Shown: piece by piece, positions 22,155 to 36,558 of the stretch
How the letters are laid out: each line of letters opens with the position of its first letter
How positions within the stretch are numbered: position 1 is the first letter of the stretch
DNA from: a virus
Lineage: Duplodnaviria; Heunggongvirae; Uroviricota; Caudoviricetes
DNA length: 64,000 bases
Strand: one strand, 5' to 3'
IMG/VR virus record: IMGVR_UViG_3300050145_000014
The notes under the pieces: generated by a model
Databases searched by the model: none
Told to the model about the DNA's origin: nothing
What the model saw: the letters and a program-made list of their open reading frames with translations, nothing else
Program-made: the position numbers and the translations under genes

Positions 22155-22230
22155 TGGTAGGAGCAATGGGAATCGAACCCATGTTAACTGCCTTATCTAG
22201 ACAGTGCTTAGGAGTTTATAAGGCTCCCCC
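22155..22230 (-). tRNA. tRNA, isotype undetermined (possible anticodon GAU)
   Basis: Reverse complement shows a canonical T-arm ATGGG-TTCGATT-CCCAT, acceptor ...TGCTCCTACCA with CCA encoded, and a D-arm CTTA/TAAG; the anticodon loop TAGATAA is non-canonical (A33) and the acceptor has one mismatch. Confidence 0.45.
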
Positions 22231-22262
22231 TTAGGCCAACATTAGCAATACTCCCGGATAAT

Positions 22263-22337
22263 TGGTAGGGCTGCAGGGCCAACGATCCCTGATCTGATGG
22301 TTAAAAGCCATCTGCTTCACCTTAAAGCTTCAACCCC
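22263..22337 (-). tRNA. tRNA-Lys (anticodon UUU)
   Basis: Acceptor GGGGTTG/CAGCCCT + A + CCA; D-arm GCTT-TAAGGTG-AAGC; anticodon arm GATGG-CTTTTAA-CCATC; the T-loop is unusual (8 nt). Confidence 0.65.
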
Positions 22338-30983: not shown

Positions 30984-31050
30984 CAACAGGGAGCCCTTGC
31001 GGGCTCCCTTCTTTCATGGTAGGATCAGAAATTATCTTGTGAGGAGGATT

Positions 31051-32677
31051 ATGGACCCGTTTGGTTTTGTATTTGACATTGAAGCAGATGCACTGTACCC
31101 TGCTGTCAGTAAAATTTGGTATCTAAGGGTAACAGACCTTCAGGATGACTCCAAATTCTTAAAATTGTACCTAGAAGAGTCTTTCATCATTGAACCTGAT
31201 TCTTCCTCTTTCTTCGGTGAAGAAGGTCTCTTGAAGTTTCAAGAGTTTGTTGAAGCTTACCCTGAAGGTTTCTTTGTTGTTGGTCATAATATCTTGCAGT
31301 ATGATGTATGGGTGTTGTGGAAACTCTGGGGCCTGCAACCATTCATTGGTAAAGGCTCCTCAGACTGGTTTATGAACCGTAAGTGCCAGTTCATTGATAC
31401 ACGTTACCTGTCGATGTTCCTAAACCCGGACTTGCCAGGACACTCCCTAGAGGATTGGGGGCAACGAGTCGGTGAACCTAAGATGGATTACCGAGGGAAG
31501 TTAGTTGAGATTGGCGTCATGACAGGCGCCGAACCAGATGGTTTTGAATTCTCTTTCTGGAATCATTGGATGCAGAAATATTGCGATCAGGACGTAAAGA
31601 CTAATAAGAAAATCTTCCGTAGGATGTGGGAGAAGTTTGTAGAGCTTTACCCTGAAGGTATTCCTGAATCATATAAAGTCTCTCAGAAGGGTTTCTTCCT
31701 TATGGGGGCCCAAGAATTCACAGGGTACTCATTCAATAAGGAATACGCTCTAGAGCTTGAGATTGAAATCACTGAAATGATCGAGGAGATTGCTAAGGAG
31801 ATTGAGCCTAAACTTCCTCCAAGACCTTTGAAGAAAGGTGAAGAGAAAGATTATACAATGCCCGCCAAACCTTTCAAGAAAGATGGTAGCTTGTCGAGCC
31901 ACATGCTTAACTTTATTGAGAAGCATAATGCAGAGTTCTTAGGTGAAGGCAAGATCAGAGTATTTGAACGAATTGAAGAGATTGAGTCTAAGAAGCTGCT
32001 TGATATGAAGGTTCCTATGGAATTGAAAGATCAATCTGCTTTGAAGGACTACTTTCTAGAACTTGGTTGGGAGCCTGTTTACTATAATTACCAGAAAGAC
32101 GACAAGAATAAATTTGTCCGTGATGACCGTGGCAAGCTAATCGAGACAACACCTAAACTTCAGGAAGCTGGTAAACTAGACCCTGGGCTTGAAGATCTTG
32201 TTGGGGACATCCCTAAGAAGGTTGTTAAGTATCTTTCTCTGCGTAATCGTCTAGGTGTTCTGCAAGGGTGGATCAATCACCCCCGTATTGCGTTAGATGG
32301 GAGACTCCCAGCAAGAGCCTCAAAGATTACAAACACCCACAGACAGGCTCATAGCACAGTCTGTAACGTCCCTAAAGCAGAAGAGCAGGTCCTATTTGGT
32401 AAACAGTTTAGAAGCTTGTTTAGAGCCGAGGAAGGGTTCCTGTTGGCTGCAGCAGATGCCGTGGCAGGGGAAAACTTCACTGAGGCGCATTACACGCTCC
32501 CTTACCCTGGTGGTGAAGAGTATGTGAATGACTTGCTTTCAGGTGATCCTCACATCAAGAACGCATGTATCTTTTATCCCGATAAAATGCGTGGAATTGA
32601 TATTACTGTCCCTGGTGTAAAGGATGACCCAAAGGTTAAGCCTTGGCGGAGTAAGTCGAAGAATGGTAAGTATGCGT
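31051..32677 (+). CDS. family-A DNA polymerase, exon 1 (3'-5' exonuclease and polymerase N-terminal region up to motif B)
   Basis: Exo I motif FDIEADA with the RBS GAGGAGGA upstream; ...LSGDPHIKNA ... RSKSKNGKYAL aligns to Pol I [11 protein letters not shown] (O-helix) up to the splice point. Confidence 0.8.
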
Positions 32678-32934
32678 TAATCTAGGCGCATGTAAAACAG
32701 ATTGAATTCAGGGAACACCCTAACGTAAAGTCGAGGGCAATCCTGAGCTAAGTTAAATAAGAGATGATCTTATTTAGAAAGTGCAACGACTATCCCTTTA
32801 CGGGAGTAGAGCTAAGTAGCTCGAAGCGGTCTGCTAGGCCTAAGAAGCCTAGGTGATATAGTCTGCTCTTGTAGGAAACTACAAGCTGTGTTAACTCACG
32901 GGAGAGGTGTTACGAGCCTCTTTGAACATAAAGG
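32678..32934 (+). mobile_element. group I intron (257 nt, no ORF) interrupting the DNA polymerase gene
   Basis: P1: exon ATGCGU pairs with the intron IGS GCGCAU, giving a U.G at the splice site; P7 R/S elements GTGCAACGACTATCCC (32781-96) and GGTGATATAGTCTG (32851-64); a terminal G at 32934; splicing restores ...KYALTFGCSAGKLAKTL (motif B) in frame. Confidence 0.75.
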
Positions 32935-33452
32935 TAACCTTCGGGTGTTCTGCAGGTAAATTAGCTAAGACTTTAGGTGTCCCAGAAGCACAGAGTAAAA
33001 TGCTCTACGCCAATTTCTGGGATGGTAATCCAGCCTTGAAGGCTTTGAAAGAAGCTGTAGAGAAATACTGGAGTACAAAAGGTAATAAGAAGTATCTCCC
33101 TGGGCTTGACGGTAGAATGCTTTGCACTCGGAGTCAGCACAGTCTTTTAAACGTACTATTTCAATCTGCTCTAGCTATTATTATGGATTATGCACTTGCT
33201 ATCATGGACAAGAAACTAGGTATTCTTTATCTTGATGATAAAGGGAGGCCTTATTATCTGTATAAGGGGTATATTGTGAGACGGGTTGCATATGTCCATG
33301 ATGAGGCAGCTTATGAGTCTGAAGATCCTATAGCAGAAGAGGTTTCACAAATGCTTGCGACATCTATTACTGAAGCGTCAAAGTACCTGAAACTACGAGT
33401 GTTGTTAAAAGGGGAGGGTAAAGTTGGTAAAAACTGGAAAGAAACTCATTGA
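32935..33452 (+). CDS. family-A DNA polymerase, exon 2 (motif B tail, motif C YVHDE, C-terminal KNWKETH)
   Basis: VAYVHDEAAYE and the terminal G.NW.E.H are hallmarks of the Pol I family. Confidence 0.8.
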
Positions 33453-33972
33453 TTCATTCCCCTGGGCGGGTATCTTAAAGTATGATGAGTCATCCTGTAC
33501 AGGGTTGAGGTGGGTATCCGGGAGGCGCTCCGGGAAAGAGGCTGGAGGTCTTGATAGGGATATTCGGAGAGGTAAATACTCAAGATATCGTATAGTTAAA
33601 TTCGGTCAACACTTTCTCGCTCATCGTATTATATGGTATCTCATCTATGGATCAATTGACTCACTAAAAGACATCGACCATATTGATGGGAATGCCTGTA
33701 ACAATAAAATCGAGAACCTCAGACTTATTGATAAAGATCTTAATAGAAGAAATAGTGCTAAAAGATCCGATAATAAGTCAGGTAAAACAGGGGTGCGGCA
33801 AATGAAAGATGGCTCTTGGGAAGCCTCTATAAAGTGTAACCATGAAAAGTATAGGGCTAGTTTCTCAGGTAAGGGGTCTTTTGAATCAGCTTGTTTGTGG
33901 AGAGACTCAATGCTAAAGAAACTAAATTCGGAGTTTTCTGCAGGATTCACTGACCGGCATGGTGTTGCATAA
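33424..33972 (+). CDS. free-standing HNH homing endonuclease with an AP2-like DNA-binding domain
   Basis: IDHIDGNACNNKIENLRL HNH motif; the second half (WEASIKCNHEKYRASFSG) resembles an AP2 domain. Confidence 0.75.
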   Translation: MVKTGKKLIDSFPWAGILKYDESSCTGLRWVSGRRSGKEAGGLDRDIRRGKYSRYRIVKFGQHFLAHRIIWYLIYGSIDSLKDIDHIDGNACNNKIENLRLIDKDLNRRNSAKRSDNKSGKTGVRQMKDGSWEASIKCNHEKYRASFSGKGSFESACLWRDSMLKKLNSEFSAGFTDRHGVA

Positions 33973-34034: not shown

Positions 34035-34841
34035 ATGATTAAGCTCTTTTATAAAGAACAAGAAGTCCCTGTGACTCTTTGGAAATTTCCCGGTGGTGAG
34101 ATTGGAGTAAAAATTTCTGAGATTTTCCCAGCTTCTCTCTACAATGGATACACAGTTGAAGTTCACTACCAAAATAGTGACGATATTTTCTATATGTTGA
34201 ATCTTGTAGATGCTTTGAAACGTGCTGGTGTGTCAAACAAACATATCATTGTGAAGATCCCCTATCTTCCATATGCTCGTCAAGATCGTGTATGCTCTCA
34301 AGGTGAAAGCTTTGCACTTGAAGTTTTCATGCAGGTATTGAAGACGATGGACGTAGAGATCTACTGCCTTGATCTCCATAGTGAAGTTGTGACAGATAAA
34401 TACCCCTGGGTCTACTCAACATCGCAACATTCTACCGCCTGGGATCTTTATGATTGCAACTTTGATGTCTATATCTCTCCTGATGCTGGGGCAAAAGAGA
34501 AAACCCACCAACACCGTGCTATTACCAGAGGCAAGGCTTCTGTTGTTTCTTTGCAAAAAGAACGTGTAGGCCCTGCAGTTGTGTACAAGCATGAAGAACA
34601 TGATACAATCAAGGGTCGTTGCATCGTTGTAGATGATATTTGCGATGGTGGTGCAACCTTTGTGTCTCTAGCTGAAATGCTGAAGCGTACTCAGCCAAAC
34701 ATCACAGAACTTTCGTTGTATGTAACCCACGGTATCTTTTCCAAGGGGATTGACAAGCTCAAGGAGTTGTATGACAATATCTACACTGCAAACTTGATGA
34801 ATGCTTCTGTAGCAGATCAAGTTACTGTTCTAACTCGTTGA
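34035..34841 (+). CDS. prs: ribose-phosphate pyrophosphokinase (PRPP synthetase) homolog; could be an Adps-type enzyme
   Basis: IPYLPYARQDR and the PRPP-binding VVDDICDGGAT motifs; 268 aa, shorter than cellular Prs. Confidence 0.75.
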   Translation: MIKLFYKEQEVPVTLWKFPGGEIGVKISEIFPASLYNGYTVEVHYQNSDDIFYMLNLVDALKRAGVSNKHIIVKIPYLPYARQDRVCSQGESFALEVFMQVLKTMDVEIYCLDLHSEVVTDKYPWVYSTSQHSTAWDLYDCNFDVYISPDAGAKEKTHQHRAITRGKASVVSLQKERVGPAVVYKHEEHDTIKGRCIVVDDICDGGATFVSLAEMLKRTQPNITELSLYVTHGIFSKGIDKLKELYDNIYTANLMNASVADQVTVLTR

Positions 34842-34851
34842 AAGGAAATCA

Positions 34852-36558
34852 ATGTCTATTGCACTAAATCCAGCCCTGGCGTGTGACTTCTATAAGGTTG
34901 GTCACAAGTTCCAGTACCCAGAAGGTACGGAAATGATCTATAGTAATTTCACCCCGCGTTCAGCAAAGCTTTTCAAGAGCGAGAGTTTCAAAGGTGAAGT
35001 AACCAACTTTGGCCTGCAAGGTTTTGCTCGATGGTTCTTGATTGATCACTGGAATAACTACTTCTTCAACCTACCTAAGCAAATTGTTGTAGCCGAGTAT
35101 TCTCGTGTCGTGAACACTGCCCTGGGTATGGAAGTCCCTACTGATCACATTGAAGCCCTGCATGATCTAGGCTATCTCCCTGTTCAAATCAAGGCTCTCC
35201 CTGAAGGTGCTGGTGTCCCTATTAAGGTTCCTGTGTTCACTATTAAGAACACTGACAAACGTTTCTTCTGGCTAGTGAACTACATCGAAACTGTTCTGTC
35301 TTCAGATAACTGGAAGTCTATTACCAATGCAACTATTGCATTTGAATATCGTGTTCTCCTAGAGAAGTGGGCAGAAGTTACTGGTTCTCCAAAGGAATTT
35401 GTCCTGTGGCAGGGACACGATTTCTCTGCGCGTGGTATGTCTGGTATTTTTGATGCCACTGCCTCAGGTGCAGCGCACTTGACTAGCTTCCTGGGAACTG
35501 ATACAATCCCTTCGATTAACTACCTTGAAGCTTACTACGAGGGTCAGCAGACTTTTGTGGGTGGTTCAGTTCCTGCCAGTGAACACTCGGTCATTTGCGC
35601 TGGCGGTCAAGAATCTGAGATTGAAACCTTCCGTCGAATTCTGAAGACTTACCCTACTGGTGTTGTCAGTATCGTTTCTGACACATGGGATTTCTGGAAT
35701 GTTATCACCAATATGGCAACTGAACTCAAGTCTGAGATCATGTCTCGTCAACCTAATGCAATTGGTTTGGCAAAGACTGTCTTCCGTCCTGACTCTGGCG
35801 ATCCTGTGGAAATTCTGTGTGGTATTGAGATTCAGGAAGTTGAGAGTATCGAAGACGCAGAAGAAATCCTAAAAGACTCTGATGAGTGGGAAGATGGTGA
35901 AGACTATGGTCCTCAGGAGTTGTCAGGTGTTTTCCGAATTGATGGTCAAGTTATTGAAGTGACTGTAGCCCCTTGGTGGAATCGTCACGACAAGCGTTTC
36001 TATTACATTGATGGTTGGCAAGAAACTAAGTCTAAGGAAGTTACTCTGACTCCTGAACAAAAGGGCGCTGTAGAATGCCTGTGGGATATCTTCGGCGGTA
36101 CAGTGACTGACAAGGGCTTCAAGGTTCTAGATAGTCATGTTGGACTAATCTATGGCGACTCTATTACCCTAGAACGTGCTGATCAAATCATGTCACGTCT
36201 TGCAGCCAAGGGCTTTGCCTCTTGTAATGTTGTGTTTGGTATCGGTTCATATACTTATCAGTACAACACCCGTGATACTTTCGGTATGGCTATGAAAGCG
36301 ACTTATGCCATCGTGAATGCCGAAGGTCGTGAACTATTCAAAGACCCTAAGACCGATTCTGGTACTAAGAAGTCTGCTAAAGGTTTGCTACGAATTGAAC
36401 TGGAAGAGGGTAAGTACGTTCTGTATGACCAACAAACTCCAGAGCAAGAGGCTCAAGGTGAACTGAAGACTGTCTTCTGTGATGGTAAGATGTTTAACCA
36501 GCAGAGTATTATGGGTATCCGTGACCTTATCAATGATCGGATTGCTAAACAAGTCTAA
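34852..36558 (+). CDS. nadV: nicotinamide phosphoribosyltransferase (NAMPT/NadV) homolog with an approximately 90-aa insertion; could be a Namat-type enzyme
   Basis: N-terminal CDFYKVGHKFQYP and C-terminal FGIGSYTYQYNTRDTFGMAMKATY match the NAMPT family; 568 aa against about 480 typical. Confidence 0.75.
   Translation: MSIALNPALACDFYKVGHKFQYPEGTEMIYSNFTPRSAKLFKSESFKGEVTNFGLQGFARWFLIDHWNNYFFNLPKQIVVAEYSRVVNTALGMEVPTDHIEALHDLGYLPVQIKALPEGAGVPIKVPVFTIKNTDKRFFWLVNYIETVLSSDNWKSITNATIAFEYRVLLEKWAEVTGSPKEFVLWQGHDFSARGMSGIFDATASGAAHLTSFLGTDTIPSINYLEAYYEGQQTFVGGSVPASEHSVICAGGQESEIETFRRILKTYPTGVVSIVSDTWDFWNVITNMATELKSEIMSRQPNAIGLAKTVFRPDSGDPVEILCGIEIQEVESIEDAEEILKDSDEWEDGEDYGPQELSGVFRIDGQVIEVTVAPWWNRHDKRFYYIDGWQETKSKEVTLTPEQKGAVECLWDIFGGTVTDKGFKVLDSHVGLIYGDSITLERADQIMSRLAAKGFASCNVVFGIGSYTYQYNTRDTFGMAMKATYAIVNAEGRELFKDPKTDSGTKKSAKGLLRIELEEGKYVLYDQQTPEQEAQGELKTVFCDGKMFNQQSIMGIRDLINDRIAKQV

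Follow-up and report, generated by a model that had tools for sequence, protein, structure and literature searches.

Phage polymerase genes have been known to contain group I introns ever since SPO1. Within phage family-A DNA polymerases, the insertion sites listed in the searchable literature correspond to E. coli positions 674 (SPO1, SP82, Bastille and Pf-WMP3), 676 (phiL7) and 881 (PhiI and W31) (PMC3428280, PMC2814812). The introns of PhiI, W31 and Pf-WMP3 are the closest described systems: they belong to subgroup IA2, which is defined by two hairpins, P7.1 and P7.2, lying between P7 and P3' and joined by G-U-A (PMC3428280); they interrupt conserved catalytic segments of T7-type family-A polymerases; and they have a short or absent P2, a U.G pair at the 5' splice site, a G as the last nucleotide, and a stop codon placed at the beginning of the intron or just within it. 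The intron described here is alike in all of these respects. It differs in having no open reading frame, where those introns carry an HNH reading frame in P6a, and in interrupting codon 764, in the O-helix, rather than position 881 (PhiI and W31) or 674 (Pf-WMP3). The introns of SPO1, SP82 and Bastille, which encode I-HmuI, I-HmuII and I-BasI, respectively, are likewise group I introns at conserved sites in phage family-A polymerases; unlike the present intron, they belong to Gram-positive myoviruses, lie at site 674/675, encode endonucleases and are much longer. We found no paper on an intron site in the O-helix (motif B) in the searchable literature.

The interrupted gene lies in a 64,000-nucleotide stretch of DNA (64 kb; the window) recorded as IMGVR_UViG_3300050145_000014, from a virus of the Caudoviricetes. 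A preliminary description of the window had noted that a family-A polymerase frame stops at 32685 and resumes at about 32907, and had proposed that joining 32677 to 32935 restores the polymerase across a break in its O-helix; our analysis bears out each of these statements. On the plus strand, the polymerase frame is open from 30997 to 32685, where it is closed by an in-frame TAG (32683-32685), and a second open frame (32907 to 33452) lies 3' of this stop codon. The likely start is the ATG at 31051, which is used by the public gene calls and gives a product of 544 aa. Exon 1 (31051-32677, plus strand), delimited by the first open frame, the public gene calls and the alignment with T7 gp5, consists of 542 codons plus the first base of a split Leu codon, and encodes the 3'-5' exonuclease domain together with that part of the polymerase domain that precedes the middle of the O-helix. 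Exon 2 (32935-33452, plus strand, stop codon included), delimited by the second open frame, the Pfam DNA_pol_A match and the T7 alignment, supplies the remaining O-helix, motif C and the C-terminus. The join reads gcg t/ta acc, removes 257 nt (32678-32934), and yields a protein of 714 aa that contains ...RSKSKNGKYALTFGCSAGKLAKTL... across the junction.

The spliced protein matches Pfam DNA_pol_A (1e-13, residues 520-712), and of the solved structures it matches T7 gp5 (PDB 1skr) best. The HMMER alignment of the two is colinear from end to end, reaches the C-terminal His, and is gapless at the junction, where RSKSKNGKYALTFG lies over T7 RDNAKTFIYGFLYG. Judged by these alignments, the window polymerase is a T7-like family-A DNA polymerase. 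In motif B, R-S-K-S-K-N-G-K-Y-A-L-T-F-G aligns against R-D-N-A-K-T-F-I-Y-G-F-L-Y-G of 1skr, and the pattern R...K...Y/F...YG (R518, K522, Y526 and Y530 in T7) is found in register; we take these four residues to be equivalent to R754, K758, F762 and Y766 of the E. coli enzyme. The residue at T7 Y526 (E. coli F762) is the dideoxynucleotide discriminator. The insertion lies two codons past its equivalent, and follows the first base of the codon that corresponds to T7 F528 (E. coli L764). As a separate observation, the position equivalent to T7 Y530 (E. coli Y766) is occupied by Phe (32947-32952, the FG of ALTFGCSAG) both in the window and in L093, which hosts an intron at the same site; the intronless close relatives have Tyr.

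Joins of the form T...G were enumerated by brute force, and those that both preserve the frame and give back a motif-B-like peptide came to three candidates, of which only 32677/32935 has a P1 helix and agrees with the homologues; the same junction recurs in the independent same-site homologues L093 and L113. The join one base upstream, 32676/32934, also keeps the frame (giving A-V-T), and is rejected only because it lacks the U.G pair and does not match the homologues. The joins 32667/32925 and 32683/33022, which also keep the frame, were rejected for destroying the motif or having no P1. The 5' splice site is marked by the pair U32677.G32686 and the 3' end by the terminal G32934. The predicted junction in spliced RNA or cDNA is GTATGCGT followed directly by TAACCTTC; as a string for read searches, it is GGTAAGTATGCGT followed by TAACCTTCGGGTG.

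That the excised segment is a group I intron lacking an ORF, with a U.G-containing P1, two P7 strands and a terminal G, had been recognised in the preliminary description, and the structural analysis upholds every element. In the Rfam covariance search that had been proposed as a check, Intron_gpI (RF00028) reaches 64.8 bits, above its gathering score of 50, with E = 3.6e-14 for the 64-kb window on both strands. The limits of this match (32594-32885) are not those of the intron: its 5' part is a low-probability fit into exon 1, and the model ends at P9, 49 nt short of the real 3' end. The same scan at a permissive E-value gave no second intron in the window. The segment folds more stably than shuffled sequence (z = -3.27, with none of 200 shuffles folding as well), and the minimum free energy (MFE) fold independently recovers P1, P4, P5, P6a, P7.1, P7.2, P8 and P9 and predicts both hairpins of the 3' end. 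No open reading frame of 40 aa or more was found inside 32678-32934, and P6a, which holds the endonuclease gene in PhiI and its allies, is here a plain 10-bp hairpin with a 5-nt loop.

All elements of the RNA lie on the plus strand. P1 (32670-32693), read directly from the sequence, recovered in the MFE fold and found in the same form in L093 and L113, pairs an exon strand (32670-32677, core AUGCGU at 32672-32677) with an internal guide strand (32686-32693, core GCGCAU at 32686-32691) across an 8-nt loop, UAAUCUAG. P2 is absent. P3 (32698-32833) is formed by CAGAUUG (32698-32704) with CGGUCUG (32827-32833) and encloses P4 to P6a, P7.1 and P7.2: P4 is 32708-13 with 32741-46, P5 is 32718-21 with 32734-37, P6 is 32747-49 with 32780-82 and P6a is 32753-62 with 32768-77. 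The P7 pseudoknot helix (32788-32863), which forms the guanosine-binding site, pairs GACUA (32788-32792) with UAGUC (32859-32863). Between its strands, P7.1 (UCCC-UUUAC-GGGA, 32793-96 with 32802-05) is joined by the linker GUA (32806-08) to P7.2 (GAGCU-AAGU-AGCUC, 32809-13 with 32818-22), and we assign the intron to subgroup IA2 because of this P7.1-GUA-P7.2 arrangement at 32793-32822. P8 (32834-39 with 32847-52) is followed by J8/7 (GUGAUA, 32853-58). The 3' domain (32869-32934) consists of P9 (32869-32884, UUGUAG with CUACAA around a GAAA loop), P9.1 (CUGUG with CACGG, 32886-90 with 32897-901), P9.2 (GAGAGG with CCUCUU, 32902-07 with 32917-22) and the tail UGAACAUAAAGG, which ends in G32934. 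P9 rests on covariation, and P9.1 and P9.2 on the MFE fold; in L093, L113 and L119, compensatory changes preserve the latter two. The tail motif GAACAY(N3-5)G, ending at the splice site, is conserved in all polA homologues. An alternative drawing with a P9.0 helix (UGUU with AACA) was dropped in favour of P9.1, which is favoured by the MFE fold and by the compensatory changes in L093 and L113. The sole structural soft spot is P10, for which the P1 loop and the opening bases of exon 2 offer only about 2 bp, as against a possible 6 bp in L093.

Covariation was assessed with a covariance model built from the P3-P9 core of the window and a structure given by hand. This model was searched against viral-contig and phage loci that had been fetched earlier by a 16-nt core motif, and it gave 128 matches in 100 sources, 127 of them homologous matches outside the window; the self-score is 248 bits, and the next best match, at 143 bits, is the intron of Ralstonia phage BOESR1. 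A MAFFT alignment of four introns registered P1, P6 and P8 too poorly for structure counting, and the covariance-model alignment was used instead. Across 56 pairs, counted after the P7 pseudoknot had been added, standard pairs occupy 95.8% of the cells, a value that is inflated by fitting the alignment to a model derived from the window's own sequence, as against 35-43% when the partners are slid by one to three columns, and none of 500 shuffles reaches the observed value. Changes on both sides are seen in 51 of the 56 pairs. With the same inflation, pairing per helix in the set enclosed by P3 is 90-99.6% (77.9% in one single-pair helix of P5), with compensatory changes in nearly all pairs; P7.1 and P7.2 are each paired in more than 99% of cells and covary; P8 is paired in 94.6%, with all six pairs covarying; P9 covaries; and P7 is almost invariant, being paired in 98.9%. 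Fitting to the model cannot yield the number of compensatory pair types seen, and the slid and shuffled controls argue that inflation is not the whole effect.

We conclude, with a probability of about 0.9, that 32678-32934 is a functional self-splicing ORF-less IA2 group I intron that splices at 32677/32935; both the occurrence of splicing and the way in which the intron moves are things we infer from sequence. Transcription would run through the intron, and the RNA would fold into a P1-P9 core. Exogenous guanosine bound in P7 would attack after U32677, at the position set by the U.G wobble of P1, and the freed 3'-OH of exon 1 would then attack after the terminal G32934, joining the exons as ...GCG U/UA ACC... 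to give an intact O-helix and the 714-aa polymerase. Ribosomes on unspliced RNA would halt at the TAG two codons into the intron. We suggest that the intron is a member of a mobile-intron lineage that is without an endonuclease of its own, because some members at the exact same site carry a homing endonuclease of the endonuclease-VII type; its spread would now be either passive, by recombination or co-conversion, or dependent on a nuclease acting in trans.

The phage itself has close sisters. A primase-helicase protein identical to its own is encoded on 14 metagenomic contigs (JGI 3300050151, 3300050554 and several SRA runs); the polymerase is interrupted on every displayed contig that reaches it, the intron is 100% identical in all five sister contigs that span it, and the HNH gene that follows the polymerase is present on all that extend far enough. 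Between the window and the sister contigs L145, L146 and L148, there are 29 differences over 13.7 kb. None of them falls in the intron, in exon 2 or in the HNH gene, and 28 of the differences are clustered in 31137-31620 (480 bp in the exonuclease domain of the polymerase), mostly spaced by multiples of three; this cluster has the look of a patch acquired by recombination with a related phage. Beyond these contigs, a megablast of the polymerase and HNH region against 50,697 phage records gave no match, which places the phage outside that collection. A scan of metagenome contigs for the spliced or intronless junction was negative, but so was the control scan for the junction with the intron in place; this second collection thus lacks the phage, and its negative is uninformative. 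The nearest polymerases, at 44-47% identity, are those of Pseudomonas phage vB_PsaM_M1 (Ounavirinae) and eight IMG/VR contigs, all uninterrupted at the site (TTC TAT GCG ATT CTG TAC GGC). Directly after the HNH gene, 34035-36558 holds a ribose-phosphate pyrophosphokinase-like gene and a nicotinamide phosphoribosyltransferase gene, which form an NAD salvage pair. This pair and the Ounavirinae affiliation of the nearest polymerase relative support an uncultured Felix-O1-like (Ounavirinae-related) phage as the source, in which we would call the polymerase gene essential. Elsewhere in the window, on the minus strand, a tRNA-like sequence (22158-22255) lies 7 nt downstream of a tRNA-Lys (22263-22337); it scores 38 bits with the Rfam tRNA model (gathering score 29), was not called by ARAGORN, and has a 32-nt insertion in the D-arm with its own GGAG/CUCC hairpin, an encoded CCA end, an apparent GAU anticodon and A at position 33.

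The insertion site is shared more widely than the phage. Introns at the same nucleotide occur in two other lineages, in which exon 2 is only 36-38% identical to that of the window, and the site is thus occupied in three polymerase lineages: the window, the lineage of L093 (also L185 and L189), with an intron of 282 nt and no reading frame, and L113, with an intron of 710 nt whose P6 holds a 156-aa endonuclease-VII-type reading frame (PHROG 2914, 1.6e-32). They have the IA2 architecture in common with the window, and the exon context and guide, TATGCGT/TAAT...GCGCA, are common to the window, L093 and L113. L093 departs from the window in its longer P6 and its strong 6-bp P10, and L113 in its reading frame. 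A scan of IMG/VR with the junction pattern returned mostly chance matches, the real ones being the L093 lineage and L113 only. An intron family that sits at one and the same nucleotide of divergent hosts, in some cases with an endonuclease and in others bare, and is missing from close relatives shows the textbook mark of a lineage of homing introns.

The intron of Ralstonia phage BOESR1 (OR367448) has the closest core that we found (70% identity over 188 nt). Like the window intron, it has no reading frame, is short (about 245 nt) and lies in the O-helix of a polymerase that is followed by an HNH gene. It differs in being inserted 5 nt further downstream, between the codons equivalent to T7 L529 and Y530; in its exon and guide sequences (CCUU with GAGG); in an extra hairpin after P1; and in its host, a podovirus of the Autographiviridae. 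The BOESR1 intron is unannotated, and GenBank gives two polymerase CDSs.

In all, introns of this kind occupy four positions within six codons of the O-helix, each with its own P1 and U.G: T7 codon 524 in phase 2 (L034, L109, L116 and L119), codon 526 in phase 1 (L025, L091, L104, L045 and L106), codon 528 in phase 1 (the window, L093/L185/L189 and L113), and the boundary between codons 529 and 530 (BOESR1 and L035). Related IA2 introns in the O-helix are also listed for L002, and some O-helix introns carry endonuclease-VII-type reading frames in P6. A different kind of element is found in L009 (IMGVR_UViG_3300043399_000215), whose polymerase is 44-53% identical to that of the window: an in-frame LAGLIDADG intein of about 334 aa (L009:4588-5592; C...LLSDGSY...YNGDGN...TGN/C) lies between ...KSKNGFY and CILYGGG, that is, between the equivalents of residues 526 and 527, about 4 nt upstream of the window intron position. 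The earlier statement that introns in phage polymerase genes target the most conserved catalytic segments is, with four intron positions and an intein in the O-helix, exceeded. We also note that in viral contigs L032, L086, L121, L047 and L081 this intron family is present three or four times over 1-2 kb, a density suggestive of repeated invasion of single genes.

The gene that follows the polymerase bears on how the intron may move. It lies at 33424-33972 on the plus strand, some 490 nt 3' of the intron; the final 29 nt of the polymerase gene, stop codon included, fall within it, and it encodes 182 aa from a TTG start. It matches Pfam HNH_3 (8.1e-14) and PHROG 99 'HNH endonuclease' (7e-39), and is very probably a free-standing homing endonuclease. 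Its protein has no relative above 38% identity in IMG/VR, and its similarity to T3 gp5.3 (37% over 43 aa) covers the catalytic core only. The slot immediately after polA has repeatedly received free-standing homing-endonuclease genes, and these belong to different families: outside the window, it holds another HNH gene in phage M1 (L001:3883-4422), a GIY-YIG gene in L004 (L004:5098-5856) and nothing in other relatives. Fifteen loci (L156-L170), fetched by similarity to the window HNH protein, have an HNH_3 match about 130 nt after polA, and in 12 of them the polA alignment next to the HNH match runs across the O-helix site unbroken.

A further proposal, which would add to the self-splicing intron rather than replace it, is collaborative homing. 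By analogy, the HNH enzyme would cut the intronless polA of co-infecting relatives at or near the O-helix site, the intron would split the target and so protect its own gene, and during repair the intron would be copied along with exon 2 and the HNH gene. T3 gp5.3 is said, in work of Bonocora and Shub from 2009, to cleave polA at the PhiI intron insertion site; its gene occupies the same position after polA, and the HNH_3 core is common to both proteins. The layout fits the published convergence of an ORF-less intron and a free-standing endonuclease on one site (PMC3984707), and the adjacency is close, with the HNH gene overlapping the polymerase stop codon; the pairing in BOESR1 of an O-helix intron that lacks a reading frame with an HNH gene after polA that resembles T3 gp5.3, and the variety of endonuclease genes in the slot, which is typical of free-standing homing endonucleases, point the same way. 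The arrangement also resembles that of the psbA intron and F-CphI of cyanophage S-PM2 and of T3 gp5.3 and the PhiI site (PMC3984707, PMC6083498), where an ORF-less intron in a conserved gene lies beside a free-standing endonuclease, but there cleavage of the insertion site by the neighbouring enzyme was shown, whereas the pairing in the window is an analogy to which co-occurrence is neutral to negative. Intron and HNH gene are found together in the window phage and BOESR1, the intron without the HNH gene in L093 and L119, which also have ORF-less O-helix introns, and the HNH gene without the intron beside many polA genes, including most of the fifteen HNH_3 loci and the intronless polymerase of phage M1. 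Moreover, the window HNH protein is too far from its best relative (38%) for its target to be deduced, and L113 uses a different, endonuclease-VII-type enzyme at the very same site. We therefore regard collaborative homing as rather unlikely.

A broader version would combine both sets of observations: the O-helix would be a hot spot for several kinds of element, at which related IA2 introns have been re-targeted, and the ORF-less intron and the HNH gene would form a collaborative-homing pair in which the intron supplies the immunity. Taken as a whole, we consider this unlikely. If it were true, the locus would be a naturally occurring stage on the way to a composite mobile intron, and endonuclease-bearing (L113) and bare (window and L093) forms would still coexist at one site.

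Two readings would dispense with a functional intron altogether. In one, the intron has decayed: its activity is lost, and the polymerase is either dead or rescued by another polymerase. The weak P10 and the lack of an endonuclease, both known in introns that are heading to loss, would fit such decay, but all the catalytic-core helices and junctions conform to the family consensus, the two exons are intact over 714 codons with all motifs present, and the phage recurs in several samples with an identical intron; we judge decay very unlikely. In the other, there is no splicing and a 544-aa N-terminal and an approximately 176-aa C-terminal protein assemble non-covalently, which we find scarcely credible: the automated calls on public contigs do give separate 544- and 176-aa CDSs, and the GTG at 32907 is preceded by a purine-rich run (GGGAGAG), but this run is only about 2 nt from the GTG, an improper Shine-Dalgarno spacing, the break would cut through the O-helix halfway along, separating residues in contact with the incoming dNTP, the intervening 257 nt are a complete ribozyme core supported by covariation and no mere spacer, and the exact join restores the conserved motif with no insertion or deletion.

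The self-splicing intron thus preferred is of a known kind, and is an ordinary member of a very large and very common phage intron family that is abundant in metagenomes; its site in the O-helix, apparently undescribed, adds to positions 674, 676 and 881 of the searchable literature on polA introns. There is nothing conceptually new in it, and the hot-spot pattern is modest and would not surprise specialists. The consequences for annotation are practical. Public calls for the window phage, like the GenBank record of BOESR1, show two polymerase fragments, and the upstream 544-aa product has no recorded Pfam hit; recognition of the intron restores one T7-like polymerase of 714 aa. Surveys of viral polA genes that type E. 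coli position 762 read codons that are broken by these introns and by the intein, and such genes would be truncated or missed because the typed codons are interrupted. For the family, the presence of four intron positions and one intein in one short segment fits the convergence of homing elements on the most constrained sequence.
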